From Candidatus Lindowbacteria bacterium RIFCSPLOWO2_12_FULL_62_27 (GTDB lineage Bacteria; Lindowbacteria; 2-12-FULL-62-27): a DNA stretch of 59,448 nucleotides. The notes below the pieces were generated by a model that made no database searches, was not told the origin of the DNA, and saw only the letters and a program-made list of their open reading frames with translations. Shown in pieces: positions 38,201 through 59,311 of this stretch (within the stretch, counting starts at the first letter, position 1; each line of letters starts with the position of its first letter). The position numbers and the translations under genes are program-made. The stretch is from NCBI GenBank assembly GCA_001784175.1, contig MFPR01000041.1, positions 62,001-121,448 on the forward strand, written 5' to 3'.

Positions 38201-41200
38201 GCCGCCGCCATCCGAGTCGATGGCCTGGTGGCGGAACAAGATGTCCGACGCCGAAATCTGGTGGCTCGACGACGGGATCAAATTCATCGACGGCAAGGAA
38301 TTTCCGAACAACACATGGTTCTCGAATGTCTCCGGCCTCTCGGCGGCGGACAAGGCCGCGCTGAAGAGCGAGATGAAAGCGAAACAGCCAGCCAAGCTTC
38401 TGAAGTGGCAGACGAAGTATATTCGCGATTATCGCGAGGGCATGGACTGGGCCTTCACGATTCAGGATGTGCTGAATCAGATTGAGTGGATCAACAATGA
38501 CATCATGAACCGCCTCAACCAGGACCAGGTCGCCGATCTGAAAAAATATGCGGATGCCGCGATCGCAAGGGTCAACGCCGCATGGCTGGAAAAGTTCACG
38601 GACCAGATAAACGGCGCGAGCACTGAATATCGGCTGTATGAGGTGCAGTCCGATATGGAGATCAGCTACAACCTGACGGCGCCGCAAAAGGCGGTCTTGA
38701 AGAAAAAAATTGCCGCGCTCCTGCCCAACATCAAGACACAGGGGCCGATCAACGCGATGAGGAATATGGAGAAACGGATCGCGGAGGAAATGAATTTCGC
38801 AGTCCTCAAAGGGCTTGACGAGCGTCTGACTGCGGGCCCGTTGGAAATGCCGTTCGCCGCGAATTCCGTGGAAGACGTTATAACGCAGATTAAATTGAGC
38901 CACGATGATGCGCTTGACGCGGATTTGAGCGTATTGTCCGACGATTCAAAGGAAATCCTGGGCGGGCTGATCCGGCAACGCATATACAGTCTGCGCGGAA
39001 TACACGACGCCGTGGTGAATGTGCAACTGAAGCGCATATCTAATATGATGCTTGGCTCCGAAATTGAACTCCTGAGCTACCAAATAGACGGCCGCGCCGC
39101 CCCCGATCTCTCTTATTTGGGCGATGACAACAAAAAGAAATTGCGGGATGAAATCCAAAAGCGATTTAATCAGGCGCCTATCCGTCAGAAGGCGTTTGAT
39201 GAGATGTATCTGGCAATCGATAATGCGGCGACTTGGGCGGATCTTACAAAACTCCAGGACGCTCTCTCCGGAAAGAGCGTTGAGGGCTTGCCGGTTATTT
39301 TGAACCTGACCGAACTCGACATCGAGCGGCTGACCGAGAGGGTCACGGAAAAGCTGGACGTCATCAATACTGAACTGAAGAAGTTCCGCGCGGGAATCGC
39401 CGCCGCGACCACGAACGCCGATATCAAGTCATGGAAAGGAAAGATTGATGAAAACAAATCGCTGGCCGCCGACCAGAAGAAGGCGCTGAAAGACGAGGCC
39501 GACGCGAAATTCGCGGAACTAGCCGCGAAGGAATTAAAAAGCATGCAGGACGGCATCACCGCCGCGACGACAAGCGCCGATATCAGCACGTGGGAATGGT
39601 CGATCGACAACAGCGACTTGCTCACCGCCGACCAGAAAAAGACGTTGAAATCGCAGTCCAAAGCGAAGCGCATTCCGCTCCTCATCTCCTACCCTTTCGA
39701 TCAGACGATGGACATCGCCAACCTCAACCGGTGGAAAGGCATGCTCAACGGCACGGCCATCGACCGGTATCCGGTCACGCTGGATTATCTGAAAGAGCCC
39801 GAGGTCACGATGATCAAGGAAAACATTCTCTCGCTGACTGCGGATCAGAAGGCCGGCTACCTGAAGACAATCGAAGAGCGCCTGGTCATCGCGAACAAGG
39901 AGCGTGAAGAATACGTGGCCGCCGCCAAGGCCAAGACCGCCAGCCTGACGAAGTACGCAGAATTGGTCGAGCACAAAGATCATATCAAAACGTCTTCGGG
40001 TCTACCGGATGACATCAAGGCGACGCTGACGGGCGAAGTGGACGTGAAAATCCAGTCGCTCTTCGGCGCGGAACTCGACGGGTATATGGCCACGTTCCGT
40101 AGCGCCCTCGTGGATGCCGACGGTATGTCCTCCGAGAAGCGCACGTTGCGGCTGAAAGCTATCGAAGACTATCTCAATGGCTATTATGCGTCTCTCACCG
40201 GGCTTCCGAACATAAAGTTCATGACCGCGGACCAGATCGCGATGATGAAGAAGGAAGTCGCGCTGGCGAAAAATCCCCCGAGCGCCACGGACCGCGCGGC
40301 CGTGGTCAAAAAATACACCGACGCCATCGCGGCGGCAAAGGATGAAGCGGCCATCAAAACCCTGAAGGCGCAGATCGAGTCGGACTCGACGCTCTTATGG
40401 TCCGACAAATATCCTCTGATCGGGTCGATCAACGCGAAAACGGTCATGAAGCTGACCATGCCGGAGAACGTCAAGGTCGGCAAGGAGATCAGGCTGAACA
40501 TTTCCGGCGGCTGGGCGCCGTTTAAGTACGAACTCGAACGCAATAGGTCCGGAGCCTCCTTCGTCGGCGACGTCTACAAGACCGGATCGTTTGCGACGGC
40601 CATGAATGAAATGGGAAATATCATTGTCGTCACCGACGCGACCGGACAGACCCAGAAAGCGAATGTCCGCACCATCGCGGGCATTACCGTCAGCCCGTCG
40701 GGAAAAACCAGCGTGATGGCGGGGGGCAGTATCACGTTTACCGCTCCCGGCGGCGTCGGAACTCCCAGTTTTTCCCTGGACCCGAACAATTCGAATGGTT
40801 TCATCAATGAACAGACGGGCGTCTATACCGCGGGCACAGGAAAATCGAATGTGGAGGATGGGATCAAGGCTCGCGACTTCGACTTCAACTCCGATGTCGT
40901 CACGGTGTTTGTTTATCCCAAGCCGACGGCGCAAGTCAGCGACGATCGCGCAAAAACGTTCCGGGACCGGCTGGCCGCCGCGAATTCGGTCGAGGCCGCT
41001 GAATTGGTGAAGACGGAACTCAACGCGGATACTCTGCTGACGCAGGAGAAGAAGGCCGAGTTGATCAAGGAGGCCGATGCCCGGGCAAGTCTTCCCGATC
41101 TGAAGGAAAAGGCGCAGAAAGAGGCGCTCGCGAACTTCCCGAAAAAACTTAAGGATTGGATCGCCACGGAATCGAGCGCGGATCGCCTTGATGTGGTCGG

Positions 41201-42836
41201 CCGATATATTTTTAACTACATTCAGTATCCCACCCCCGCGCCGTCCGGCATGGATTGGCTGATCGACGGGCTCAAGTACTATTCGGACGCGGAATTGAGC
41301 GATTTGTCCAAGGAATGCTCTCTGCCGGGATCGATCAAGACCATCCGCGGATGGTTGGAGGATCCGATGACGTCGACAGAAACGGTACGGTGGAGAATCA
41401 AAGGATTCAATTATTCGGATGCGAAGAAGGAGAAACTCCTCCTCGAGGTCGACGCGTGGGTCGCCACGGTGGATACATCGACCAAGGCCGCGTATGACGC
41501 GAAGGCCAAGGCGGCGAAAGAGGCCGAACAAGCGGCGATGGATGCCAAGATCGCCGACGTGACCGCCAAATCGGAGATGCGCATTTCGATCACGTCCCTG
41601 TATCAGAGCATATTGTACCGGGCGCCCACGGCGATGGAATTGGCAAACAACGAAGGATATTTTGCTTCTTTCGGTCTCGCCGATATCGCCAACAGTCTAT
41701 TGACGTCGGACGGATTCAAGAATCTATCCGCCGCCGAAAAAATTAAATCCCTGTACCGATTCATTCTGCGGAGAGACGCCGATGCGGACGGAACGGCGTA
41801 CTACGGCGCGTCGGGCAAGTCGACCGCTGAAATCGCCAAGGCTCTGTATGAAAGCGATGAACACAAAAAACTCGCGGAGGATAAAAAGACGCTTATCAAA
41901 GATGTGCTTACAAAGTACGGAGTCAATTTGAGCGCATCTTCCGCGGCAACGACAACTGCAATGACAACCGCTACAAGTTACACCCCGTCCGCAACGAACC
42001 TTGCCAAAGGCAAATCCGCGTCCGGCAGTGCGGCCTGCGGGACGAGCGAAGGCCCTGAAAAGGCGGTCAACGGAACGTCGAGCGGCGGCAATTCCGACAA
42101 ATGGTGTTCGCTCGCTGATCAAAAATATCTGGATGTCGATCTGGGCGCGTCCTATTCCATCACCGAATTTGTCGTCGCGCACGCGGGCGCGGGCAGCGAG
42201 GATGCGTCGTTCAACACGAAAGACTTCTCCTTCTCGGTCAGCGCGGACAAGACGACGTGGACGGACATTTTGACGGTGAGCGGAAACACAAGCAACGTAA
42301 CGAAACACGCGGTTCAGGGCACAGGACAATATGTCCGGTTGAACATCAAGACGCCGACCCAGACAACGGACAAAGCCGCGCGAATTTATGAGTTCGAAGT
42401 CAACGGCACGATTGTCCCGGCTGTGTCCAACCTCGCCAAAGGAAAAACAGCGACCGGCAGCGCCAGTTGCGCCTCGTCCGAAGGGCCCGAAAAGGCGGTC
42501 AACGGGAGCAAATCGGATAAATGGTGTTCGAAGGCGGATCAGAAATTTCTCGAGGTCGACCTCGGCGCGCCGTACTCCATCACGGAGTTTGTCGTCGCGC
42601 ACGCGGCCGAGGGCGGAGAGGGCTCGTCGTACAACACAAAAGATTTTAAAATCTCGGTCAGCGCGGACAAATCGTCTTGGACCGAGAGTGTCAACGTGAG
42701 CGGAAACACCAGCAATCTCACGAAACATGCGGTTACGAACACGACGGGCCAGTATGTTAAATTGACCATCACGACGCCGACCCAGACGGCGGACCCGGCC
42801 GCGCGCATTTACGAGTTTGAGGTGATCGGACGATGA
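32223..42836 (+). CDS. Giant 3537-aa secreted protein: five ~330-aa beta-rich repeats, helical region, Ig-like domains, DUF4214-like domain and two F5/8 type C (CBM32) domains
   Basis: Signal peptide ending PALA; repeats start GKW/GDW about every 990 nt; LYRFILRRDADADG; two NLAKGK.A..S...KWCS...VDLG...IYEFEV domains. Confidence 0.85.
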   Translation: MNRSRKRIRANRAPALLFLLLIAFPALAADITGRALVPLKDGSQAYVFLLNNYDRTRDGEIYVIVTSGGTRTAYKPQENILDAPAQKGSWGVKLRGDVQISMVEVVLYGNPPAPVSAPVLALPPALAGKWTLSDRMAGALTLKLEAEGDAAKGYTLTGKASVKDAGEFAVTGTWNPAKPSAPLIIETSNVFKQLLEGLLGQSYPADAFSLGEKITAIINLPTEWTAQLKKGIKSQDDLKAFSAGQVAVGIAVPFTLKIDPTKPAFNLMARINPVAKTVSLSLGAGQKWDKPFDFLPVSFDQIALTTDFKFESLNAKAAGNIEFFGLIPVDLDMITLKGMKPDLKLTIKPDVNILIGALGKLEIPVELKDIFLPVLNKLEFGTFNLGGLGDLGISGKLPSLKMDFKIKTLHFDRTFNLDMPEFSFRKPALFIAELGKIVLPELKANFDIILADLAFDGLIGKWTLADLSIDVGSIKVTAEGDPMAGYDLACAITVKDVGTMNAVGKWSPAAPLAPVTFHVDNIFKSAFEGLLGGAYPSEAFSLDEKIDVTVGLDPNWVEQLKKGSKGATTIKTGTYTLVAKMPFKLKLDPMKPMFNLTATIDAVAKTVAVGLDEGQKWDQPFDFLPVTFDKIDLTSDFKFESLNAKAAGNIEFFGAIPASLDMITLKGMKPDLKLTIKPDVNILIGALGKLDIPIELKDIFIPLLDKFEFGAFELGGIGDLGISGKLPSLKMDFKLKLPNFEHTFKLDMPEFNFRKPDLFTAELGKIVLPVLQANLPDITMGLALELATGKWPLVDLNIDLVKLKLDAEGDPTKGFTLDGVITVKDLGDFKVNGLWGKDDPSKVVFDVDNAAQSVLDATIGKAVPKDWFKMGDKITVTATLDKEWSDQLTKGAKAANPFDKGNFTVDISFPLTLKFDPTKDAFKLTAHIDPQAKTATIGLDAGQTWSDPFGYLPVTFTQIDMASDVKFSKIAMTSTADMTFIKPIPLKLDATIANGAVTNFKLIVTPPADFPSAVLNAMKIPGNLSLSLDDVKWALDEILKNIKMGEITISAPDFNAKVADIGLKFSVDLPSWKYDFDFKAPGVNLKNLDKFYVDFGNYVVPVLVANFDKITAGLIFKGIAGKWPLGDVDLGIASANLEAEGDPTKGYTLTGKITVVEAGDFTINGFWSPSTPLDPINFKADNLFKTAMDKRLDQLVPKDWIKLDEKINIKVGLSESWVNKLQRGGRADAKTPAAGGDKFTLEVSMPLKMILDPKKPPFNMTASYQPLNDVISLSLDDGQVWEKPLDILPVRFDKLALGADPSLTTLTVNTSGKLDFLVPCDVVLVMETKKGAAPSYTVNLKPAAGTNIVKAILDGRVPPASLALVNGLLPNTVVEEISVAMDATKSKPDIRLKFTMSKESLSQTFDILVKEADMSNSGDFSAKAAPQILDQLSGGTIGAATTELLDKLGLSGDWTIIDLNIASQLILKVNVKGSPAKGYDITSDIKPLVFDQFKLTGRWDPAKPADPVTLTADKNVFKPVFDKTIGKQLPTGWMVLKDELFVVITFPSAITDALTSGGSAGAGATTGADGIDMEIGFPMELKIDPTKEKRLDMIGSVLPMKSQAQLALAAGQVWDKPFGFVPATFNTFTAASDPSFTQITIHGEGTSDFLEGEKIDFKIDIVSVQGQKPTLEINATPTPGMAKAMMKKANIPASLQDCIATIELNKIDMSADFSSVINGVVPYCKLSFTLNHPLAGRLNIDVGLPAGDMKDPAGFAKTVAENVVSQLENIVSQVVGNVSKKLENAAKDPVGTAKDLANTAGNTAQDIAASTKDFFKDPGRNTVDLAKNAAKMAEDLGKQVVSNVTAKLEKIAEDPIGAAIEAAQAAYDAAVSVANSIADFFSDIGSAIVDFFGGGDDGPSDEEIAAQEAADKAKADAQKKLNDLYIEQMNKRIAEILRNADFENCKKAIAAATTMQEAEKIAYNDFQPAYSHLLNSDKTQLYEEVKKKAMSIAPPPSESMAWWRNKMSDAEIWWLDDGIKFIDGKEFPNNTWFSNVSGLSAADKAALKSEMKAKQPAKLLKWQTKYIRDYREGMDWAFTIQDVLNQIEWINNDIMNRLNQDQVADLKKYADAAIARVNAAWLEKFTDQINGASTEYRLYEVQSDMEISYNLTAPQKAVLKKKIAALLPNIKTQGPINAMRNMEKRIAEEMNFAVLKGLDERLTAGPLEMPFAANSVEDVITQIKLSHDDALDADLSVLSDDSKEILGGLIRQRIYSLRGIHDAVVNVQLKRISNMMLGSEIELLSYQIDGRAAPDLSYLGDDNKKKLRDEIQKRFNQAPIRQKAFDEMYLAIDNAATWADLTKLQDALSGKSVEGLPVILNLTELDIERLTERVTEKLDVINTELKKFRAGIAAATTNADIKSWKGKIDENKSLAADQKKALKDEADAKFAELAAKELKSMQDGITAATTSADISTWEWSIDNSDLLTADQKKTLKSQSKAKRIPLLISYPFDQTMDIANLNRWKGMLNGTAIDRYPVTLDYLKEPEVTMIKENILSLTADQKAGYLKTIEERLVIANKEREEYVAAAKAKTASLTKYAELVEHKDHIKTSSGLPDDIKATLTGEVDVKIQSLFGAELDGYMATFRSALVDADGMSSEKRTLRLKAIEDYLNGYYASLTGLPNIKFMTADQIAMMKKEVALAKNPPSATDRAAVVKKYTDAIAAAKDEAAIKTLKAQIESDSTLLWSDKYPLIGSINAKTVMKLTMPENVKVGKEIRLNISGGWAPFKYELERNRSGASFVGDVYKTGSFATAMNEMGNIIVVTDATGQTQKANVRTIAGITVSPSGKTSVMAGGSITFTAPGGVGTPSFSLDPNNSNGFINEQTGVYTAGTGKSNVEDGIKARDFDFNSDVVTVFVYPKPTAQVSDDRAKTFRDRLAAANSVEAAELVKTELNADTLLTQEKKAELIKEADARASLPDLKEKAQKEALANFPKKLKDWIATESSADRLDVVGRYIFNYIQYPTPAPSGMDWLIDGLKYYSDAELSDLSKECSLPGSIKTIRGWLEDPMTSTETVRWRIKGFNYSDAKKEKLLLEVDAWVATVDTSTKAAYDAKAKAAKEAEQAAMDAKIADVTAKSEMRISITSLYQSILYRAPTAMELANNEGYFASFGLADIANSLLTSDGFKNLSAAEKIKSLYRFILRRDADADGTAYYGASGKSTAEIAKALYESDEHKKLAEDKKTLIKDVLTKYGVNLSASSAATTTAMTTATSYTPSATNLAKGKSASGSAACGTSEGPEKAVNGTSSGGNSDKWCSLADQKYLDVDLGASYSITEFVVAHAGAGSEDASFNTKDFSFSVSADKTTWTDILTVSGNTSNVTKHAVQGTGQYVRLNIKTPTQTTDKAARIYEFEVNGTIVPAVSNLAKGKTATGSASCASSEGPEKAVNGSKSDKWCSKADQKFLEVDLGAPYSITEFVVAHAAEGGEGSSYNTKDFKISVSADKSSWTESVNVSGNTSNLTKHAVTNTTGQYVKLTITTPTQTADPAARIYEFEVIGR

Positions 42837-43768
42837 GGCGCCGGATTCTCGTCGCGGCCGTCGCGCTTATGGTGCCGTATTCCGCGTGGGCGGGATCGCG
42901 CGCCAAAGACGCCGCAACCCCTTTCGGCGGGAACAAGAACCCCACGAAGGCGGATGTTGTGCGCGTCGTCGGCGACGCGACGCGCAAGACGGCGGCGGGG
43001 ATGACGGACAAACTGGCCGGCGACTACAGCGCCTTTCTCGTGGGGGCGGCGAACGTGATGGATGACAGAAGAATCGTCAAGCCCGCCTATCGCGACGTGT
43101 TTCTCTCCACGCAAAAAGATACGGTGATCAACGCGATGCTGAATTCCTACGACACCTTCGCCGCCGCCACGCTGTCGGCGTGGATGAAAAAGGCGCCGGG
43201 ACTTCGGTGGACGGTTTCCACCGCGCTCCAATCGGAACGCGACCGCCTCGTGGACTTTTTCCTTCAGGAACCCGAGTTGATCATCCGAGTTGCGCGTTCC
43301 GTCCAGTCCTCGCGCGCAAAAGCGGGACTCCATCCGGATTCAGTGCCGGACGTCATCCGAACGAAAGTGGATGAAGCCGCCGCGGCGGACACGCAGGAGA
43401 ACTTCACGCGCCTGCTCTACCGCGCCGCCGCGCTCGGCGACACGGAAGTTGGGCGGGCGATCCGCGGGCGAGTCCGGAGACTTGCGACGGACCTGACGGA
43501 CGGCCTGACGGCCGCCTACGTCAAATTCCGCGTGGAGTTCGACGCGACGCTGACCGAAAACAAAATCACCGACACCGCCGTGCGCGGTTCACTGTTTCGC
43601 CCGAAAAGGGCCGACGTTCTCGCCGCGCTGATGAAACAATACGACGCCTTCGCCGCCAAAACCCAATCCGCCTTCAAAGCCGCCGGCCCGGCCGTCCGGA
43701 GCGCGGTCGCGGACGAGCTTGCCGCCACGCGCGAGAAGTTCAACGCGACGTTCAAGGCCGAACAATGA
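42833..43768 (+). CDS. Secreted alpha-helical protein with internal duplication (paralog A)
   Basis: Signal peptide; two copies of Y..F.V......KI.....R..........ML..YD.FA; ATGA overlap with the upstream gene. Confidence 0.7.
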   Translation: MRRRILVAAVALMVPYSAWAGSRAKDAATPFGGNKNPTKADVVRVVGDATRKTAAGMTDKLAGDYSAFLVGAANVMDDRRIVKPAYRDVFLSTQKDTVINAMLNSYDTFAAATLSAWMKKAPGLRWTVSTALQSERDRLVDFFLQEPELIIRVARSVQSSRAKAGLHPDSVPDVIRTKVDEAAAADTQENFTRLLYRAAALGDTEVGRAIRGRVRRLATDLTDGLTAAYVKFRVEFDATLTENKITDTAVRGSLFRPKRADVLAALMKQYDAFAAKTQSAFKAAGPAVRSAVADELAATREKFNATFKAEQ

Positions 43769-44379
43769 AATATTCTCGAAAAGTCCCAACGGAAAAATCC
43801 ATGATCATGCGCCCTGTCACCGCTGAGATCGAGCGGCGGATTTTTACGATTCGCGGGCGGAGGGTGATGCTGGACGCCGATCTGGCGAAAGTGTATGGGG
43901 TGACCACGGCCAGATTGAACGAGCAGGTGAAGCGGAATCCCGATCGATTCCCGCCGGATTTGGTGTTCCAAATCACGCGCCGGGAGTGGGCTGTTTTGAT
44001 ATCGCAATTTGCGACATCAAAGATCCGCGGCGGCCGCAGAAAACTTCCTTATGTGTTCACAAAAGATGGAGCGGTGATGATCGCAACTGTCCTCAAGAGT
44101 CCACGTGCAGCCATGGTCACACTGCAGGTTGTACGGGCTTTTAATCGCATGCAGGCCATTTTGGATACGCATGCGGACATCGGCATCAAGATACGAGAAC
44201 TCGAAAAGACCATCAGCCGGAAGTTCCGAAAACATGAAAAGTCCATCGAGATTATTTTTGGCGCGCTGAATCAATTGATGAACCCGCCCCAAACGCCCGT
44301 CGTCGGGTTTGTCGTTGACGGGGGCGACAAAGACAATTCCTCTCTTGGACGAAGAGACCGGAGGCGAAAATCCAAATGA
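43765..44379 (+). CDS. ORF6N-domain DNA-binding protein
   Basis: IRGRRVMLDADLAKVYGVTTARLNEQVKRNPDRFP, GGRRKLPYVFT and a C-terminal coiled coil ending in VGF. Confidence 0.9.
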   Translation: MKYSRKVPTEKSMIMRPVTAEIERRIFTIRGRRVMLDADLAKVYGVTTARLNEQVKRNPDRFPPDLVFQITRREWAVLISQFATSKIRGGRRKLPYVFTKDGAVMIATVLKSPRAAMVTLQVVRAFNRMQAILDTHADIGIKIRELEKTISRKFRKHEKSIEIIFGALNQLMNPPQTPVVGFVVDGGDKDNSSLGRRDRRRKSK

Positions 44380-46365: not shown

Positions 46366-46397
46366 CTGGATATGTCAATTCCAATTTGCGAGACAAA

Positions 46398-47558
46398 ATG
46401 GAAGTAATCAACCGATTCGTGTCAGAAGCCGGGCAGAGCTTTTTCCTGTTCGGTCCGCGGGGAACGGGGAAGTCCACATGGGTCAGGCGGCGGTTCGGCG
46501 CCGCGCTTCGAATCGACCTTCTCGCGCCGGACGTTTTCCGCGAGTACAGCGCCCGGCCGGAACGCTTAAGAGAGCTGGCCGCGGGGAACCCCCGCGCCCG
46601 GGTGATCGTCATCGACGAGGTCCAGAAAGTCCCTGATCTCTTGGGCGTTGTTCACGGGTTGATCGAGGAAAAGCGGGGCCTGCGTTTCGTGCTGACGGGA
46701 TCCAGTTCCCGAAAACTGAAACGCTCCGGCGTGGATCTCATGGCCGGCCGCGCCGTCATCCGGACGATCCACCCGTTCATGGCGGCGGAACTCGACAACC
46801 GGTTTCATTTTGAAAAGGCGCTCCGGATCGGACTTCTGCCCCTGGTCTGGAACTCACCGGATCCCGCGGAGGTTTTGAAAACCTACGCCGCCCTGTACGT
46901 CCGGGAAGAGGTCCAGATGGAGGGATTGGTTCGCAACGTCGGGAATTTTTCCCGGTTCCTGGAAGCGGTCAGTTTCAGTCATGCTGCGATTCTGAATATC
47001 AGCAACCTGTCCCGGGAATGCGGGGTCGAGCGCAAGACCGTTGAGGGCTATGTATCGATCCTGGAGGATTTGCTGTTGGGATTTCGCCTGCCGGTTTTTA
47101 CTAAACGCGCCCGCCGGGCGGTGAGCATGCATCCCAAATTCTTTTTGTTCGACGCCGGCGTGTTTCGGTCCTTGCGGCCCACCGGCCCTCTTGATCGGCC
47201 GGCGGAAATCGACGGCGCCGCCCTGGAGGGACTGGTGGCCCAGCATCTGCGGGCCTGGATCGATTACCGGCGCGCCCGAAATCAGCTTTTTTTCTGGCGA
47301 AGCCGCGCCGGTCTCGAGGTCGATTTCGTCGTGTATGGCCCGGACGGCTTCCTGGCGATCGAAGTTAAAAATACTAACCGGATTCGCCCGGAGGATTTGC
47401 GCGGCCTGAAGAGCTTCAAAGACGAATATCCGCAAAGCCAAGCCATCCTTTTGTATCGCGGAACAGAGCGATTGAAACAAGGCGGCGTCCTCTGCCTTCC
47501 ATGCGATGAATTTTTGAGCGGGATTCACCCCCACAAAAAATTGATGACGGCGACATGA
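46398..47558 (+). CDS. AAA_14 ATPase with DUF4143 / PD-(D/E)xK-like C-terminus
   Basis: GPRGTGKST, VIDEVQK, LTGSS, PKFFLFDAG, WRSRAGLEVDF, AIEVK. Confidence 0.92.
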   Translation: MEVINRFVSEAGQSFFLFGPRGTGKSTWVRRRFGAALRIDLLAPDVFREYSARPERLRELAAGNPRARVIVIDEVQKVPDLLGVVHGLIEEKRGLRFVLTGSSSRKLKRSGVDLMAGRAVIRTIHPFMAAELDNRFHFEKALRIGLLPLVWNSPDPAEVLKTYAALYVREEVQMEGLVRNVGNFSRFLEAVSFSHAAILNISNLSRECGVERKTVEGYVSILEDLLLGFRLPVFTKRARRAVSMHPKFFLFDAGVFRSLRPTGPLDRPAEIDGAALEGLVAQHLRAWIDYRRARNQLFFWRSRAGLEVDFVVYGPDGFLAIEVKNTNRIRPEDLRGLKSFKDEYPQSQAILLYRGTERLKQGGVLCLPCDEFLSGIHPHKKLMTAT

Positions 47559-50245: not shown

Positions 50246-51505
50246 TCATGATGTATCCGGTATAATGTCCGACCCGGCATAGAAATTCGCTTTGATCCGA
50301 TCCACCCAATATCGGATGCTCTTGTCAATGCGCATGGCCGCCTTCACATTCAGACGAATGAAAGCATGAAATAAATTGTACGCCACGAATAATAACAGCC
50401 AGATCACCGTCATCGCGTTCACGTCATGTTTGTAGACGTGGTCGGCGTGCCACTCGTTCACCAATTCGTTGAACCCTTCGTTCTCCACCGCCCAGCGGCG
50501 GTGTCCGCCTTTCACCGCCGCGCGACTTGGGAATTTCTCCTTCGACAACGTCATCACCCACCACCATCCGGCCGTCTTCACCTCCAACCGCCCGTCTTTC
50601 TGCCTTCGAATAGTTTGTGTCTCAACCGTCCGCACCACCCGCACCGGCCGATCCATCGCGTCCCACGACTCAAAGCCCTCCAGGTCCCAGCACCGGTAGA
50701 CCTTTCCGTCTTCCTCCCACTGCTCCGGCGTCATCTTGTCCATCAGCCCCTCCGCGTCCCTCAGCACTTCCCGCCGTTCGTCCTTCAACACCGCCATCGC
50801 GTCCTTCCCATAGTCCAGACACATTTTGAAAAACGGCGCACGGGCATACAAACTGTCCGCCACCACCTTGTCGAAACTCCGGCCATAATCACGGATCACC
50901 CGCTCCAGGCACCTCACCGAGCACGCGACCTCGTCCTCGCCTCCAGCCTGCATCTCCATGTCCAACAAAATCGTCCATTCTCCGCAAACCCACATCGCCG
51001 TCACACACCGATGGTAATACTGGACCCGGTCCTCTTCCGACATGTGGATCGTCCGTTCCAGACAGTCCGGACAGCACCTGAGAAAACTGGCGCTGATCTC
51101 ATGCCCGTCCACCACCACCTGCCCCCGCCCCTCTTCAAACGCTTTCCGAAACGCCTTGTTTCGTTTCATCTTCCGGATCAATTTCCGACTCACCACGCGC
51201 AAATCTTTCGTCTCCACACTCGCCGTGATCCGCCCCATCTGATCCGCTTTCGGCAATCGTCCTCCTACCCACCGTTTGGCAAACCCTCCCCATTGATGCT
51301 GCTCCAGCGCGTTGAAACTCCCCACCCTCGCCAGCAACATCACCAAGAGCCCACGCGCCACAGCCGGCGTCTGGTACTCCCCCTCGCCCTTGCGCGTGTC
51401 GCCCACCTGCCGGATCATCTCCGACAGCCCATAGACCCGATCCGCGTACTTCAATAATCTCCGAAGAATCTCCTCTATCCCTCCCGTTCTCTCAACTTCC
51501 ACCAC
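50246..51505 (-). CDS. DDE transposase (IS4-superfamily/ISNCY-like)
   Basis: VVDG, VVADSLY, GHRRWAVENEGFNELV. Start codon uncertain; overlaps the DUF6788 gene. Confidence 0.88.
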   Translation of the reverse strand: MVEVERTGGIEEILRRLLKYADRVYGLSEMIRQVGDTRKGEGEYQTPAVARGLLVMLLARVGSFNALEQHQWGGFAKRWVGGRLPKADQMGRITASVETKDLRVVSRKLIRKMKRNKAFRKAFEEGRGQVVVDGHEISASFLRCCPDCLERTIHMSEEDRVQYYHRCVTAMWVCGEWTILLDMEMQAGGEDEVACSVRCLERVIRDYGRSFDKVVADSLYARAPFFKMCLDYGKDAMAVLKDERREVLRDAEGLMDKMTPEQWEEDGKVYRCWDLEGFESWDAMDRPVRVVRTVETQTIRRQKDGRLEVKTAGWWWVMTLSKEKFPSRAAVKGGHRRWAVENEGFNELVNEWHADHVYKHDVNAMTVIWLLLFVAYNLFHAFIRLNVKAAMRIDKSIRYWVDRIKANFYAGSDIIPDTS

Positions 51506-51798
51506 TGCACACGTGAAATCTTCTCCAAAAGATCCGTGGCCTCACGATATTCCTTGATCCACATCCGAACTCGTTTCTCCCATGCTTTGGGCACATAGAC
51601 TTGCCGGCGTTTGCCGTTGTCACTTCGTTCCAGCACCAGTTGTACGTGCTTTTCACCCCTCGTGCATTTACATCCTGCCTTGCCGCATGTCCCTTCCCGC
51701 ACGCACAATGTACCGCGCAGGTATTCCCTCCGGTGAACCACTTTGGCCAGCCGGGCTCTCCATTCCCGTTCGGCCGATGTCATTTGACTTCGACGCAT
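51475..51798 (-). CDS. DUF6788-family IS accessory protein
   Basis: RGTL.....CGK.GCKC..GEKH......GKRRQVYVP; AAGGAGG RBS. Confidence 0.82.
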   Translation of the reverse strand: MRRSQMTSAEREWRARLAKVVHRREYLRGTLCVREGTCGKAGCKCTRGEKHVQLVLERSDNGKRRQVYVPKAWEKRVRMWIKEYREATDLLEKISRVQWWKLREREG

Positions 51799-52167: not shown

Positions 52168-53148
52168 TTGCACAGGAGGAGAGGCCTTCTGAATACATCT
52201 AGTGTCCATGCGCCCGCCGGCTTCCTGCGGCTCGGCGCGCTTCTCGTTTCCATTCTCTGGCTGGCGGCGCCTTTTGCCGACGCCGCCGAAATCCTCTCCG
52301 GCAAACTGTCCGACGTCCGCGGCGACGTGAGAATCCAGCGGCGCGGGTCGAACATCACGTCTCTGGCGCCCTCCGGCACACGCGTCGAGCCGGGTGACGC
52401 CGTCATCACCGGCATGGCGGGCCGCGCCAGGATCGCGATGAAACATGGCGTCCTCCACGTCGATCCGGCCAGTCGGGTTGTCCTCATGCGCGGCCTCGCC
52501 GGGCGGTCCGAGGTATTCGCCGAATTCGCGATGCCGTTCGGGTCCGTGACGGCGCATATTAATATGGAGAAGGGCAAGGAACACTGGTTCGACATCCTGA
52601 CCCTCAACACGCGCGCTCGCGGCCGGGGACACAAGGAAGGGGCGCAACTCGTCGTCCATCACGAAGCCGGCGCGACGACCGTGACCGACAGCGCTTCCGG
52701 CCGGTGGGAACAACTCCCGATGATCCTGCCCAACGAGCCGCCCGCCGTTCAGGCCGTTCTCACCGATGCCGCCAACGCAACAACCTTGGTCAAAACATAT
52801 CTCGACAGTGCATTGAGCGAATCGGTGCTCCGGGCCGTGGATGTCGCGGCCCAGCCGGGCGCGCCGGATCTGATGGCAGTTCAAATCGTGCCCGCGCCGG
52901 TCGTGGAACCAGCTCCTGTCGAACCGCCTCCCGCGAAACCGGCGGAAAGTCCAAAGCCTGCGCCCAAGCCTGAACCGCCCGCGGCGCCCGCACCACAGCC
53001 GCCGCCCGCGCCAGAGCCTCCACCCGCTCCTGCGCCGCCACCACCGCCTCCGCCGCAAACGCCGCCGCTCAAGTTGACGTTGACGCCGCAAGAAGGCAAA
53101 GGCGCCGTGCTTTCCAATTCCGCGACCGTAACGTCCGAGAACAAATAA
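52168..53148 (+). CDS. Secreted FecR-like domain protein with Pro-rich C-terminus
   Basis: Signal peptide; GDVRIQRRG...L..G..V..GDAVITG..GRARI FecR-like pattern; poly-Pro tail. Start codon uncertain. Confidence 0.65.
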
Positions 53149-53149
53149 G

Positions 53150-56100
53150 ATGCGCTCGATGCTTGCCCGGAACCGCTGGTCGCGCTTCCTCATCCTGTTG
53201 CCTGTAGTCTGTTTCCTGTTGCCTTTCTTTTCGGACACCGCGCTGGCCATGCAGATTTTCGTCAAGACGCAGACCGGCAAAACCATCACGCTCGATGTCG
53301 AACCCTCGGACGCCATCGAGAACATCAAAGCGAAAATTCAGGACAAGGAAGGCATTGCGCCGGGCGAACAGAAACTGATCTTTGCGGGAAAACAACTCGA
53401 GGATGGCCGGACGCTCTCCGACTACAACATCCAAAAAGAATCGACGCTCCACTTGGTGGTGAAAAAGGCGCAAGCGCCGGCCGGGAATCTCAAGATCAGG
53501 CTGTGGGCCTACGCGGGCGCGACGGTAAGCGCCGCGACGTCCGGCGGCGTCCCGCCTTACACATACTCGATCTCAACCAATAACTCCGGCGCGGCGATCT
53601 CCTCCGACGGCCTCTACACGGCCGGGCCGACATCGGGCGTGAGCGACATCATCCGCGTCACCGACGCGGACGGGACGTACCTCGAGGGCGAGGTCGAAGT
53701 CCGGATCGTGCCCGCTCCGAAACTCACCATCGTCTCCATCACCGCCGCGCAGGAAAAATATAATCCGGGCGACAAGGTCACGGGCGAGATCATGATTAAA
53801 AACAGCGGCACGGCCGACGCCGATGCCGTCGTCGACCTCGGGGTTGCCAGTCCGAATGGAAAAGAATCGTACAAAATCGACAACCTGGCGGCCGCGGTGG
53901 AGAAGGGCGCCGAGAAGGCGGTCGCGTATTCGTTCGAACTCAAATCGGACGCGGCCGACGGACAATACAAGGCAAACGCCATCGCAAAGATCGGCTCGCA
54001 AACCGCCGCGGAGTTGGCCGACGTCCATGTGTTCATCGTCGTTCCGAAGCCCAAGCCCAAACCGCCGGTCAACACGGTTGCGCCGCAAATCAGCGGCGGC
54101 ACAAAGGCCGGTGAAAAACTCACGTGCGGCACGGGCGAATGGACCGGCGATCCGACGATAGAATACAGCTACCAGTGGCAGAGGGAAGGCAAGGAGATTT
54201 CCGGCGTGTCGAGCGCCGAATATGTCATCCAGAACGTGGACCCCGGCCTCGCGCTCACCTGCGTCGTGACGGCGAAGAATGATGCCGGATCGGCATCGAA
54301 GCCCGCCCAGAATTCGATCGCTGTCGTACTTGAGCCAGTCACGATCGAACCGGCGAACGTGACTCTGGAGGCGGGAGATGCCGTAACCTTCACCGGCAAA
54401 GGCGGTCGGGCTCCGTACACGTTCGAAGCTTCTAGTAAGACTATCGATGCGTCGACAGGCAAATACACAGCACCGGCAAGCTCGACAGGCGGGTCTGCTG
54501 ATATTTACGATGTGAACGTCTTCGACGACCAAAAAACCGGAGCTCGCGCCGAGGTTTATATCATTCCTCCGAAATTATCCGCTTTCATCACGACGGACAA
54601 GAAAAGTTATCTGCCGGGAGAAGAAGTCCGTGTCACAGTCACTGTCAAGAGCGCAAGTTATTGTGATTGGCAGACGTCCGTCTGGGGTATTTCTGTAAAA
54701 CAGGGTGACGCGCATTCGGGATATGGAAAAGCTGATTTGAATGGGATTCTTATTGTTCCGAAGGGTGGTGAGACATCGTACAAATTTACTTTCAAAGTGA
54801 ACACTAACGGCGTGAAATATGGCACGTATTCGGTTGCTGCGAATTTCAAGCCAACCGTTAAGGCAGACCATATCAAAGACGTACGTATCGCATTGAATCC
54901 AGACCCAGTCCAATTCGAAGTCATCGCGCCCCCGACACCTCCGGCCAACACCGAAGCGCCGAAAATTAGCGGCGACGGACTCGTGGATGGCGAGGCCGGG
55001 ATTGACGTGAAACTTACGTGCTCGACGGGCGAGTGGACGGGCGATCCGACGATCGCGTATTCATATCAGTGGACGAGGGACGGAAAAGACATCACCGACG
55101 CGACAAACGCCGACTACACGACGACCAAGGACGACGCCGGCATGAAACTGAAATGCGTCGTGACCGCGAAAAACGATGAGGGGAAGGCGGCGAAAGAAAG
55201 TTCGAACTCCGCAACCATCGTCGTTCCGGATCTGGTGATCGACCCGACGGAGGCGACGATATCGGAGGAGCAGTCGGTGACGTTCACCGCAAGCGGCGGG
55301 TACGGCAAATATACATTCTCCATCGCGGAAAACAAATCGCGCGGAAATGGGATTAAGGTGAGGGGGGCCAACAATAAATTCATCTATACGGCAGGCGAGC
55401 TGGCCATCGACAACGTGCAGGACGTGGTGGCGGTGAAGGACGAATTGGGCAAGGAGGCCAAAGCGGTTGTCACCGTAAAGCCGGAGGAGCCGGTCAACTC
55501 GGTTGCTCCGCAAATCAGCGGCGACGGACTCGTGGACGGCGAGGCCGGGATTGATGTGAAACTTACATGCTCGACGGGAGATTGGGTGAGCGATCTGGAA
55601 ATTACCTACTGGTTTCAGTGGCGTCGGGACGGCAAGCCAATCGACGGCGCGAATTCGGCCGGCTACACGACGACCCAGGACGACGCCGGCACGAAACTGA
55701 AATGCGTCGTGTCCGCGCATAACGATGCGGGGATGAACTTGAAGGAAAGTTCCAATTCGGTCACCGTCAAGGCGGCGGAGCTGACGATTTCACCGGCGCA
55801 GGAAAGCGCTACCGCGGGCGCGGTGATCACGCTTCAGGCGGCCGGCGGCGAGCCGCCCTACGAATTCAGTTTCATCGAAAACAATTCAAACGCGGAGCTG
55901 ACTCGAGACGAGGAGGCCACGGATCTATCGCCGGACATCTACTACACCGCCGGCGCGCCGGAGATGGATGTGATCGATCAGGTTCAGGTCAAGGACAAGC
56001 TCGGCGCCACCGCGGTTGCGTCGCTGACCGTCACCGCTCCGCCTCCGGTGGATAATGGCGATGGACAGGGCGAGGGCGGCGGATCCAATCAAAACGATTA

Positions 56101-59100
56101 CTATGACAACGACGGCGACGACGGCGGCGGATCCAACATCGGCGGCGGCGGGTCGAAAGGCCCCTACAAGAAGGGGGCGACGGTCAAGGCGATCAACGCC
56201 AACAATCCGAGCCAGGTTGTCACCGGCGAGATCCTCGACGACAACGGGAACTTCTTCCTCACCGTCCCGTGGTCCGGCCCGACCCTCATACGGATATCCG
56301 GCCCCTTCGTGGACGAATTCACCGGCGAAGTGAAGACGATCGACGAGCCGATCGAGGGGGTCGTGAACGCCCAGAACCACGACACGGTTAACTGTTCCAT
56401 TCACATCCCCTCGACCATCGCGAGCAACATCGTGGAGGACAAAATGAAAGCCGACCCGTCCAAAAAAATCACGCCCGTGGACGTCGTCTCGGCGAACCGC
56501 AAAGTGGGCAAGATGCTCGGCCTCTCGGGCGACATCGACGTCAGCCGGATCGACATCCGGGACACCTCCATTCCGAATGCGGAAAAGCTCCTGAACTTCC
56601 AGATCTCCGTCGCCGCCAACGCGGGAGTCGAGAAGGCGATCGAGGCCGCGAAGCAGATCGCGGTAGAATTTGCGCGGAATAAACCGGCGGGCTCGTCGCG
56701 CGGCGGCGTGGTCAAGGCGGCCGAATTGAAGAAGACGCTGGAGAATATCGAGGCGGGACGAAATATCTCCGTAAAAACGGAAAGCGGCAAAACGATCAGC
56801 GTTGCTCCGGCCACCGTCATCAAGAACGTCGTCGTGCAACGCCGGCCGCCGCCCCGGCCAGTGGCCGAGCCCGCCAAAAAGCCCGGCGCGAAGGAGAGAT
56901 TGAGCGACAAGATGGTTCCGCCCGGATACAAATATGAATTGATCTACAAGGACAATTCGGGTCAGCAGAAATCGCGGATATACAAAGAGGGCGAACGGCT
57001 GTTCGCCGACGACATGGCGGAATTCATCAAGATCAAAGTCCTGCGCGCCGATACGGCGCCGGCCGAGCCCGCCGATGCCCGGATCAACGAGGCCAAAAAA
57101 ATTCTGGCGGGAATGGCCGACGCGTTGAACAAAAAAGATGTCAGCGGCATGACCGCCCCGGTCGCGCCTGACGCGATCGTGACGATGAATGGCAGGCGGT
57201 CCGACGGCGCGGGCCTGCGGCAACTGCTCGATGCGGCGCTTCCCCTCCTGGACAATGTCCAATGGAACCTGCAAATCCAATCGGCAGCGGTCGACCCCAA
57301 AACCGGAAACGTCCGTGTGCGGGTGACGTCGTCGTATTCGGCCGAACTCATGGAACCGGTCGGCGTGACGCGCGAGTCGCTGCCGAAACCGGAAGAGGTC
57401 AAGGCCTATCAGATGCGGCTCCTGGAATCGTTGCGGTCCACTTCCGACGAAATCTATGAATTCAAATCAACCACCGCCGGCCTGCAACTGGTCGAGATGG
57501 TCTCCGGTCTGCCCTTCAGCGCCGACCTGGCCGACAAAATCTCCAGCCTCATGGCGGCGTGGCGGGTGAAAGTCACGGTGTTCGGGCTGTTCGATCATCT
57601 GGAACAGAACAATCTCGCAAAATTCTCGGAACTCATCGCTGAAGCCTTCGTCAACAACGACGACAACAATTTCAAACACAACCGCGCCGATTTTATCGAG
57701 TCCATCAAAGCCGACCTCGACCACCTCACGGCGATTGACCACGGCGTCCGCGTCGAGGACATCCAGTTCACCGCGGACCATTCCATCGCGCGCGTCCCCG
57801 TCACGTGGGACCGCCGCGCCCGCATCGCCAACACGCGCTCGGAGTGGACGGTCAAAAATCAGAAAACGACGCTGACGCTGACAAACGGCGGTCTGTTCAG
57901 GCTCGCGCAGATCGAAGGCAAGCCCCTGTTCGGCAACTCGAGCCGCCTGACGCGAAAGACCTTGATCCGCGCGGGCGAACTCGACGGCGTGACGGTGACG
58001 AAAGCGGTCGTCATCGGCGACGGGCGGGACACCGCGGCCGCGACGAGCGCCGACGTGCCGGAAATGCCGGCGGAGAACATCTCAAGCCTCAACATAAGCA
58101 CAGAGATCAGCAACGGGACCATCTCTTCCAATCCAACGGTTGATCAGACGTGGAAGGGCAACATCACGATCACCTCGAACATCACGATCCCCTCCGGGAT
58201 CAAGATCACCGTCGTATCGGGCGCTGTCATCACGCTGTCCGACAACGTGACGATTACCGTCGCGGGAACATTGGAGCCGACCAGCGCGACGTTCACGTCC
58301 GGGACAACGTGCGGCCTCACGATCTCCAGCGGCGGGACCGTGACGTCGGCCGGCACAAGCTACACATGGGGCAACAACTCGACAATCACCGTCGCGTCCG
58401 GCGGGACGGCGACGTTCACCAGCGGCACGTGGTCCATGGGCACGGGCACGACCATCGCCGCCAGCGGCACGCTCTCGGCGACGAGCGCCACGTTCAAGGC
58501 GGCCTCGACAAGGTGGGGCGGGATGACGATCGCGTCCGGATCGGCCGTGACGATCACGAGTTGCACGATGAAGGAAGCCGACACGCTCATCATCACGACC
58601 GCCGCCAGCCCGACGATTTCCAGCAACACGCTCAATCCTGTCCGGTGCGCCATCCAGGTCAAATCGAGCGGGTCTCCCGTCATTACGGGGAACACCATCA
58701 CGTCTCTGTCGGGGTCGTTCATTGCCGCCATGGCGCTCGATGTCGGCGTCAATTCTTCCGCCAGCATTTCTTTCAGCAACAACACCATCACGAAACTCGG
58801 GTCGGCCGTTCCCAATGTGAGTATCGATTACAACGCCAATATCCAGATTCGGTCGGGTTTCACCGGCACATTCACGTCCTCGGGCAACCGATTGACCGGC
58901 GATCACACCGGCGCGGTGTCCGGCACGGCGCTCAATACGTATGGCGTTATTCTCGCCACGGACGCCGGTTCGGCCACATTCACAAATGATGTCTTTAACG
59001 AGTTTGCGGTTGGACTCGAAAACCGCGGATCTGATAATGATTATACCGGCGCGGACCAGGGCATTTCCCTCACCTTCACGAACTGCGACTTCACGCACAA

Positions 59101-59311
59101 CAGATTGGATGGACTAAACGGAGGGAACGCCACCGCCGACGGTACGCCGTCCATCACGCTGACCGGCTGTTTCTTCAAGGGTAACGGCGACGACCACGGA
59201 ACACAGGCGGTCAACACGGGCACCACCGTGCCGGACGCCGTCAACGGCGCGGACGACACCTACATGGACGTGACGTCCGTCACAAATCCGCGGTCGAGCG
59301 CGAACAACTGA
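53150..59311 (+). CDS. 2053-aa secreted protein with N-terminal eukaryote-type ubiquitin domain, Ig-like repeats, NTF2-like domains and C-terminal beta-helix
   Basis: Signal peptide ending TALA, then MQIFVKT...HLV; three NT.APxISG...LTCxTGxW...YQW.RDG repeats; GGxxPY Ig-like units; Thr/Ser-rich beta-helix-like C-terminus. Confidence 0.9.
53249..53458 (+). other. Ubiquitin domain (equivalent to residues 1-70)
   Basis: Manual alignment with human ubiquitin gives 62/70 identical residues; followed by VKKAQ instead of LRLRGG. Confidence 0.97.

Follow-up and report, generated by a model that had tools for sequence, protein, structure and literature searches.

The ubiquitin-bearing locus

The window, by which the whole analysed stretch of 59,448 nucleotides from contig MFPR01000041.1 of Candidatus Lindowbacteria bacterium RIFCSPLOWO2_12_FULL_62_27 is meant, contains a ubiquitin domain which has no separate gene and forms residues 34-109 of an open reading frame (ORF) of 2053 amino acids (aa; P0001, 53150-59311, forward strand). 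A gene for a protein of 326 aa, here called the partner, lies directly upstream. An initial annotation of the window had described the domain as a non-conjugatable, acceptor-only mimic of ubiquitin with retuned specificity. The present analysis showed a folded eukaryote-type ubiquitin, and the main correction to that description is topological: the domain is very probably exported, non-conjugatable and no intracellular acceptor. The features of the locus are the following.

52168-53148, forward strand: partner gene, 326 aa, an ORF with 1 nt between its stop codon and the ATG of the ubiquitin gene
53150-59311, forward strand: whole ORF P0001, with signal peptide, ubiquitin, linker, Ig-like/MG2/fn3 repeats, SnoaL-like/DUF4440 domains and right-handed beta-helix (ORF, translation, Pfam)
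53150-53248, forward strand: signal peptide, 33 aa, made up of a basic n-region, a hydrophobic run of about 15 residues as h-region and a c-region whose last residues are T-A-L-A
53249-53464, forward strand: ubiquitin core, residues 1-72 (phmmer, Pfam, AlphaFold2, Foldseek); 53249-53476 adds residues 73-76 (K-A-Q-A)
53465-53497, forward strand: linker, 11 residues, variable in length and sequence among copies, predicted to be disordered and without Gly-Gly (alignment)
53498-53713, forward strand: first Ig-like beta-sandwich domain (alignments; all-beta model with a predicted local distance difference test, pLDDT, of 60-87)

In the translation the c-region of the signal peptide, with small residues at positions -3 and -1 (A-x-A), abuts Met1 of the ubiquitin directly, and cleavage probably occurs exactly before this residue. 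The predicted mature product of about 2020 aa continues behind the ubiquitin with extracellular-type domains for about another 1,940 residues. Among these, Pfam gave MG2 at residues 204-281, Ig_2 at 619-692 and Beta_helix at 1788-1949, together with fn3, the C-terminal part of the protein being the beta-helix region. This architecture suggests that P0001 is located outside the cytoplasm or at the cell surface.

Sequence and fold of the ubiquitin domain

The translation of 53249-53476 comprises 76 residues, and in a phmmer search of PDB chains it was aligned without gaps with ubiquitin residues 1-72 (53249-53464), 411 distinct sequences being matched at E ≤0.001 and single-ubiquitin chains at E of about 1e-37. 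The Pfam ubiquitin family PF00240 matched ORF residues 36-106 with 96.7 bits (cut-off 25.4). Column by column, 62 of 70 residues are identical to canonical ubiquitin, for which the first repeat of polyubiquitin P0009, the same as PDB ubiquitin over residues 1-72, was taken as reference. The differences are L8Q, E16D, T22A, V26I, P37A, D39G, Q40E and R42K, and residues 71-76 read VKKAQA where the canonical sequence has LRLRGG; Met1, the lysines at 6, 11, 27, 29, 33, 48 and 63, I44, S65, H68 and V70 are retained. The phmmer alignment and the column comparison agree in every point with the substitutions, tail and intact residues that the initial annotation had listed.

An AlphaFold2 model of the ubiquitin, the linker and the first Ig-like domain gave a pLDDT of 86-94 for ubiquitin residues 1-70, and Foldseek matched it to solved ubiquitin chains with template-modelling (TM) scores of 0.93-0.98 and root-mean-square deviations of 0.5-1.9 Å, so that the domain is taken to fold and the unfolded state named as refuting the initial annotation does not apply. 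Linker residues 74-81 have a pLDDT below 50, and the predicted TM score of 0.46 for the whole model fits two independent domains on a flexible tether.

No stop codon follows VKKAQA and the reading frame runs on; Gly-Gly at positions 75-76 or within the linker was found in none of the seven copies of the family described below. The processed Leu-Arg-Gly-Gly end usable by E1, a trait of the ubiquitin family, is lacking in the window domain with its VKKAQA tail and continued ORF. Since a non-cleavable linker replaces Leu-Arg-Gly-Gly, neither activation by E1 nor release by a deubiquitinase (DUB) is to be expected. The sequence indicates that the domain cannot be conjugated via its own C-terminus and offers no Gly-Gly for DUB cleavage. 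The earlier statement that it can be neither conjugated nor clipped off is borne out by all seven copies, and nothing in the sequence suggests processing to a conjugatable C-terminus.

The family, its age and selection

The window lies on contig 41 (121 kb) of a 4.39-Mb genome which is 94% complete and has three ubiquitin matches, on contig 41 (the window), on contig 39 (in a 2109-aa protein) and on contig 9, where a diverged copy is identical to canonical ubiquitin at 40 of 70 positions. The phylum as sampled consists of four genomes representing four genera of one family. Ubiquitin genes were found in three of the four genera; the fourth genome (91% complete, 300 contigs) gave no ubiquitin match, and 37 sampled genomes of other lineages gave none either. 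A scan of metagenome contigs with the Ig-like domain yielded nine loci, namely the three contigs of the genome itself, a new family copy (L092) and five loci (L095-L099) in which no ubiquitin was present. A homologue search with residues 1-200 brought up mostly polyubiquitins from eukaryotes and metagenomes and picked out no orthologues. The window DNA is contained in seven DNA sequencing runs of groundwater and soil metagenomes, which may be its source, and no RNA run was listed.

All seven family copies have an A-x-A signal-peptide end before M-(Q/E)-I-F-V-K-T, no Gly-Gly, a variable linker and the same first Ig-like domain. The mean pairwise identity of the linker is 22% (10 pairs, the diverged copy left out). 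Synonymous divergence (dS) between the ubiquitin copies ranges from 0.54 to >2, one pair being saturated, and nonsynonymous divergence (dN) among the near-canonical copies from 0.11 to 0.19. The dN/dS ratio, a check proposed with the initial annotation, was 0.068-0.329 in the 14 pairs of the seven-copy family with finite dS. In the 10 pairs without the diverged copy the mean dN of the ubiquitin was 0.149 versus 0.253 for the adjacent Ig-like domain. The G+C content at third codon positions (GC3) is 72% in the ubiquitin segment against 77% in the rest of the ORF. A tree of 92 ubiquitin cores (72 columns) had none of its 84 branches starred and was uninformative on the donor and on the number of transfers; when the seven family copies were constrained as a clade, the log-likelihood was 8.3 better than that of the free tree and the constraint was not rejected (p-AU 0.658). 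Taken together, the dS/dN pattern, GC3, the clade test and the common architecture speak for a single old acquisition, after which the copies arose by duplication and were kept under purifying selection, and not for a recent transfer or contamination.

An assembly chimera or eukaryotic contamination was considered with regard to the wider scan described below, where tandem Gly-Gly polyubiquitin on short contigs accounts for eight of the 80 best loci. In the window, by contrast, the ORF and its bacterial flanks form one uninterrupted stretch of a 121-kb contig, and the GC3 of the ORF is like that of host genes; the junctions are common to three paralogues, to orthologues in two other genera and to an independent contig, and dS between the copies is near saturation. 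This explanation can practically be dismissed.

Contig 9, which carries the diverged copy (L003, 1-500), ends in 72-nt tandem repeats, and its last 91 nt match the first 91 nt of contig 39 (L002, 1-330) at 96.7%. Judged by this overlap, contigs 9 and 39 are probably adjacent. In that case the diverged-ubiquitin protein would fill the partner slot upstream of the giant gene of contig 39 and would have the partner-type motif at its C-terminal end; in the assembly it is interrupted by an in-frame TAG inside the repeat.

The conserved head and its partner gene

Three proteins of the family are full-length (2053, 2109 and 1441 aa). Colinearity among them is confined to the initial 150-180 aa, a stretch of 67-73% identity which comprises the signal peptide, ubiquitin, linker and first Ig-like domain. 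Their bodies have only reshuffled Ig-like repeats in common (26-40% identity) and differ in further domains, with a beta-helix and SnoaL-like domains in the window protein and F5/8 type C domains in the protein of a sister genus (L011). The giants of contig 39 (L100, 315-6641, 2109 aa) and of the sister genus (L011, 2989-7311, 1441 aa) have a common C-terminal domain, both ending in Gly-Gly, and differ in this from the window protein with its beta-helix end.

The partner protein consists of a signal peptide, an all-beta N-terminal region, a proline-rich linker, which in one homologue carries an inserted Ig-like module, and, at the C-terminus, a conserved motif about 25 residues long. A homologue was found at the family loci of the window, L008, L009, L010, L011 and L092. 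At L002 there is a fragment of its C-terminal part. The spacing of 1 nt between partner and ubiquitin gene is the same in 4/4 complete junctions (window, L008, L009 and L010). Thus the conserved unit in the lineage is only the ubiquitin-linker-Ig head and its translationally coupled upstream gene.

Searches with the partner gave no Pfam family even at E ≤5, in NCBIfam only a sub-threshold match to Lsa33 (18.5 bits, cut-off 420), and, with a profile against PDB sequences, nothing below E 0.27. Its AlphaFold2 model had a mean pLDDT of 48.8. In ESM Atlas features the partner is nearest to FecR-domain clusters (0.94; 25 of 30 matches), which is of use as a lead only.

A complex prediction of the partner with the ubiquitin-Ig head gave a score of 0.59 (runs of 0.72, 0.37 and 0.59), the best of three controls being 0.00; the runs had at least 55% of their contacts in common and a partner pLDDT of at least 76. 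In the calibration, 58 of 80 solved complexes and two of 110 mismatched pairs came up to the mark, and scores ≤0.60 among those past the mark belonged to only seven of the 80 solved complexes and to both passing mismatches; these counts hold only roughly for the present prediction, which was made from its own shallow alignments. Complex prediction and synteny together provide moderate grounds for the view that the head and the partner work together.

Ubiquitins behind signal peptides in other prokaryotes

One genome per prokaryotic species was scanned with ubiquitin patterns derived from the family alignment, which gave at least 598 pattern matches, at least 437 of them confirmed by tblastn. 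The figures below refer to the best 80 of these loci, which hold 84 ubiquitin-bearing frames. A signal peptide stands directly before Met1 at 62 of the 80 loci (64 frames, 61 called by a crude rule and three by eye). Eleven of the 84 frames have no signal peptide, two of them being cut by an ORF or contig end, and nine are tandem ubiquitins, eight of which, present as Gly-Gly polyubiquitin on short contigs, probably stem from contaminating eukaryotic DNA. These eight (L024, L044, L055, L065, L066, L071, L083 and L089) are contigs of 305-3463 nt, filed under bacterial isolates or metagenome-assembled genomes (MAGs), with tandem Gly-Gly polyubiquitin or ubiquitin-ribosomal fusions.

In the 62 exported copies that entered the column counts (L011 and one insertion-bearing copy were left out), between 52 and 69 of the 70 positions are identical to canonical ubiquitin (median 65). 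Met1 is present in 62/62, D16 in 42/62 and Gly-Gly at 75-76 in 5/62; L8 is retained in 89%, I44 in 90%, H68 in 95% and V70 in 82%, K27 and K29 in 100% and K48 and K63 in 92%. Ten members from isolates or long contigs were analysed with Pfam for the carrier of the ubiquitin. Four have an autotransporter beta-domain (Limnohabitans, Pseudomonas, Pseudovibrio and Loktanella), two have three SLH repeats (Cohnella and Saccharibacillus), and one each has beta-helix repeats (Ruminococcus albus), YDG/MBG adhesin domains (a Clostridiales isolate), SdrD/SpaA/DUF11 domains (a Methanothrix archaeon) or nothing further (Conexibacter). A C-terminal anchor was recognisable in six of the ten, and several small proteins of the class consist of ubiquitin and a short hydrophobic tail only. 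The window gene is therefore one member of a broad prokaryotic set which exports ubiquitin at a free N-terminal end.

Literature searches outside subscription journals and supplements yielded, for this class, only the Bacteroides work discussed below, and the accessible parts of two comparative-genomics papers (PMC3482391, PMC1949818) make no mention of it. Bacterial export of ubiquitin is apparently widespread and undescribed.

Three Dyella loci (L043 from Dyella sp. OK004, L029 and L035) encode a signal peptide followed by a stand-alone ubiquitin; one copy keeps Leu-Arg-Leu-Arg-Gly-Gly and a stop codon, and two stop after residue 73. With the full Gly-Gly end, an in-principle conjugatable exported ubiquitin exists in cultured soil bacteria. 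Two MAGs of Methanobacteriota archaea (L019 and L021) have ubiquitin domains 85-86% identical to the query. In front of these domains stand about 120 residues that show no signal-peptide features, and behind them comes a short extension with Cys, an arrangement unlike that of the exported class.

The architecture of these carriers bears on the possibility that the ubiquitin is an inert helper of folding or secretion, a stable, fast-folding N-terminal cap which aids export, solubility or protease resistance. Ubiquitin is a common N-terminal fusion tag by which recombinant proteins are obtained in higher yield and made more soluble, and the constant placement at the extreme mature N-terminus and the unconstrained linker would suit such a cap. 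However, ubiquitin is nearly the sole autotransporter passenger in 4/10 members and is joined only to a short hydrophobic tail in others, which leaves nothing to be helped; the surface of a mere scaffold should be much freer to change than it is seen to be, and in the window lineage the head co-varies with a dedicated partner gene. A helper function is thus considered unlikely.

Variation of the ubiquitin surface

The eight substitutions of the window copy are shared unevenly with the six other family copies: E16D occurs in all six, V26I in two, L8Q, Q40E and R42K in one each, and T22A, P37A and D39G in none. Hot spots of change in the family are positions 9, 22, 36, 37, 39, 40, 42, 71 and 72, where the residues differ from copy to copy (D39, for example, is replaced by G, T, S, L and S). 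We take these positions to ring the base of the C-terminal tail, on the side used by E1 and many deubiquitinases; as stretches, the variable parts of the family are 8-9, 36-42 and 70-72. The initial annotation had seen the changes clustered on the recognition face and concluded that partner specificity was retuned. The spatial impression has substance; the retuning is not borne out, for the substitutions are mostly private and no conserved trait. The pattern looks like relaxed or diversifying change round a non-functional tail and not like a fixed new specificity.

Among the six near-canonical copies, 58 of 420 alignment cells are changed overall. The hydrophobic patch (8, 44, 68 and 70) is about average with 4 of 24 cells, the changes including I44K in one copy and V70E in another, while only 1 of 42 lysine cells is changed (K27Q).

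According to the acceptor-only proposal, the protein would be delivered into a eukaryotic cell, where chains would be built on its lysines or Met1 and its retuned face would select partners. The window copy, with its seven lysines and Met1, its I44, H68 and V70 and its lack of a Gly-Gly tail, would serve for this, and the low count of changed lysine cells and the lysine retention of the class (100% for K27 and K29, 92% for K48 and K63, n=62) agree with it. An acceptor would, however, need contact with E2 and E3 enzymes, whereas a signal peptide precedes the domain, which forms the mature N-terminus of an extracellular-type protein of 2053 aa and is fused to the long body described above, and no injection or translocation machinery is linked within the window. 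One paralogue lacks K11 and K63, others carry I44K, V70E or K27Q, and the listed substitutions are mostly private to the window copy; in the class, lysine retention of 92-100% is near the overall median identity of 65/70. The groundwater and soil metagenomes in which the DNA occurs give no hint of an association with a host. In view of this evidence the acceptor-only mimic is very unlikely.

The surface data also bear on mimicry directed at eukaryotes without any conjugation, in which the exposed ubiquitin would be a bait, decoy or adhesin for ubiquitin-binding proteins of protist grazers or hosts. Such a role would account for a whole surface that stays near-canonical; the median of 65/70 in 62 exported copies of many phyla, with L8 at 89%, I44 at 90% and H68 at 95%, the slower change of the ubiquitin than of the neighbouring domain despite saturated dS, and its occurrence as sole passenger of small autotransporters are in line with this. 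But the ubiquitin stands outside the bacterium, whereas the ubiquitin receptors known to us are cytosolic, and no eukaryotic partner is known. In the family the patch is polar or charged, or has L8A, in 4/7 copies (L8Q; L8A with I44K; L8Q with I44V, V70A and H68M; V70E), and the class sample is biased to canonical sequences. Mimicry of this kind is rather unlikely.

Conjugation machinery

No E1, E2 or JAB match was obtained within the window, as the initial annotation had stated, and the genome search proposed with it was carried out. The E2 family (PF00179) had no match in the 94%-complete genome, the control having matched in no genome, so that absence is unproven; JAB (PF01398) had none either. 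One strong ThiF match in the genome is a ThiF-rhodanese protein encoded beside a PLP-dependent enzyme on contig 28, and one sub-threshold ThiF match lies about 2 kb before the start of the window. A single Prok-JAB protein of 203 aa is also encoded on contig 28, 48 kb from the ThiF gene, between a stress-protein gene and an O-antigen-ligase-like gene. This inventory of the E1/JAB type is of the ordinary sulfur-carrier kind in ordinary metabolic contexts. Conjugation machinery is in any case beside the point if the window ubiquitin is exported, and reasoning from conjugation is not directly applicable to a domain working outside the cytoplasm.

Neighbouring genes

Immediately upstream of the partner-ubiquitin pair, at 50246-51798 on the reverse strand, a transposase of the insertion sequence type (DDE, 419 aa, PF01609) and a DUF6788 protein are encoded. 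A second giant ORF of 3537 aa (32223-42836, forward strand) has two C-terminal F5/8 type C (discoidin) domains and DUF4214, and its discoidin domains recur in the ubiquitin-headed protein of the sister genus (L011). At 43765-44379 and 46386-47558 (forward strand), a phage regulatory protein of the ORF6N/Rha type and an ATPase with AAA_14 and DUF4143 domains are encoded; they are placed between the giant gene and a pair of GAF-histidine kinase and LuxR response-regulator genes and may be mobile-element debris.

A proposed binding head outside the cytoplasm

The ubiquitin is best explained, and on the whole probably, as the mature N-terminal domain of a giant Sec-exported protein of the extracellular type which serves as a non-covalent binding head and is no cytoplasmic modifier. 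The signal peptide would be cut at Met1, to be followed by the ubiquitin fold, a flexible linker, an Ig-like domain and a long variable body. The domain would descend from an old, horizontally acquired eukaryote-type ubiquitin which was adapted to the codon usage of the host, duplicated within the four-genome phylum and kept by purifying selection. The ubiquitin-linker-Ig head may act with the translationally coupled exported partner in docking, assembly or anchoring, and in the wider class the ubiquitin module would be an outward-facing cargo of autotransporters and of SLH-anchored, PEP-CTERM-like and adhesin-type proteins. The binding of the partner and the ligand of the head are postulated here. 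That it is a binding head working with the partner is about as likely as not.

Several observations weigh against this explanation. A partner homologue is absent from the 79 ubiquitin loci of other lineages among the best 80 of at least 437, so that the retention of ubiquitin by bacteria in general cannot be explained by docking of the partner. The complex prediction gives the interaction weak support, and the predicted contact, if real, may involve the Ig-like domain and not the ubiquitin, no interface having been reported. The better-than-average retention of the lysines fits the acceptor idea of the initial annotation better than a binding head. A plain binding module would not obviously have to stay 80-93% identical to eukaryotic ubiquitin over its whole surface, and a near-canonical surface in cells without ubiquitin partners is well explained by no reading. 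The class figures, taken from loci ranked by likeness to the query, are biased to canonical sequences. In the diverged copy the dN of the ubiquitin (0.37-0.41) is near that of its Ig-like domain (0.30-0.40), and K11, K63, H68 and much of the ubiquitin surface are lost; the canonical surface is thus dispensable in at least one copy. Finally, neither Pfam nor NCBIfam gave a C-terminal envelope anchor or sorting domain (autotransporter barrel, SLH or PEP-CTERM-like) in P0001.

It is tempting to speculate that prokaryotes of many phyla display near-canonical ubiquitin in order to engage the ubiquitin-recognition or chain machinery of eukaryotes, for instance grazers or hosts, so that lysines and Met1 would matter, and that in the present lineage this display has become a two-gene system of ubiquitin head and partner with hypervariable loops at 9 and 36-42 round the former tail. 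Such a scheme has a small chance of being correct.

Ubiquitin is treated as a hallmark of eukaryotes, and its conservation is usually ascribed to its many intracellular partners. The locus described here holds an old, selected and exported ubiquitin in a deep-branching, uncultured groundwater lineage, where it has been duplicated in giant surface-type proteins and is accompanied by a partner, and comparable genes number in the hundreds across bacteria and archaea (at least 437 confirmed ubiquitin stretches). A function, if found, would account for a near-unchanged ubiquitin outside cells and without its partners. It is the class that is surprising; the window locus adds to it a lineage, an architecture and a partner, not a function.

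Comparison with known systems

Among described proteins, those closest to the window ubiquitin are two from Bacteroides, BfUbb (B. fragilis) and BoUbb (B. ovatus; PMC3352274, PMC5705921, PMC11467351). Like the window domain, BfUbb is a eukaryote-type ubiquitin acquired by a bacterium. It has a signal for signal peptidase I, with the mature protein starting at ubiquitin residue 1 (PMC5705921), a site which in the window protein was read from the sequence; the terminal Gly-Gly is missing, and the producer has no ubiquitination enzymes (PMC3352274, PMC5705921). Mature BfUbb is a free protein of 76 aa with a C-terminal cysteine and 63% identity to human ubiquitin (PMC3352274, PMC5705921). It is a diffusible antibacterial toxin which is imported by a SusCD-type transporter and has a periplasmic peptidyl-prolyl isomerase (PPIase) as its target (PMC11467351).

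In view of the common cut at Met1 and the common lack of Gly-Gly (PMC5705921, PMC3352274), and of the import route and target described for BfUbb (PMC11467351), a similar toxin might be clipped from the giant carrier and kill competitors. The window ubiquitin is, however, fused, its tail has no cysteine, no cleavage site is conserved in the linkers of the seven copies, and no immunity-like small gene is conserved next to the junctions of the window and L008-L010. A released toxin is accordingly very improbable. Unlike BfUbb as described, the window ubiquitin is identical to the canonical sequence at 62/70 positions, has no cysteine in residues 71-83 and is the first domain of 2053 aa; it is one of three paralogues, has a dedicated partner encoded upstream and comes from a groundwater lineage. 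The window protein is not filed as a BfUbb orthologue because it lacks the stand-alone size and the terminal cysteine by which the descriptions set BfUbb apart.

With the exported-ubiquitin carrier class the window protein shares the signal peptide abutting Met1, the near-canonical core, the loss of Gly-Gly, the position of ubiquitin as first mature domain and D16 (E16D), the residue of 42/62 exported members. It differs from the class in having no recognised C-terminal anchor, a length of 2053 aa, a conserved Ig-like domain in the head and a lineage-specific partner, and its lineage retains the hydrophobic patch less faithfully than do the members of the class sample.

Eukaryotic ubiquitin-ribosomal fusions and the ubiquitin-extension effectors of cyst nematodes resemble the window protein in that ubiquitin is N-terminal in a longer product, and the nematode effectors also possess a signal peptide (PMC5705921). 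The eukaryotic fusions are cut after Gly76, which frees the ubiquitin, whereas the window protein has neither Gly-Gly nor a conserved cut site. The bacterial and archaeal proteins of the sulfur-carrier type (ThiS, MoaD, SAMP and TtuB) and the ubiquitin-like proteins of E1/E2/JAB operons have the beta-grasp fold in common with the window domain. These are proteins of the cytoplasm with a terminal Gly or Gly-Gly, their genes stand next to E1, E2 or JAB genes, and their likeness to ubiquitin is only remote; the window ubiquitin, unlike those of the conjugation operons, has a signal peptide, no terminal Gly and no adjacent E1, E2 or JAB genes. What is new here, in comparison with all these systems, is a secreted bacterial ubiquitin which forms the head of giant proteins and is accompanied by a dedicated partner, in a groundwater phylum of four genomes.

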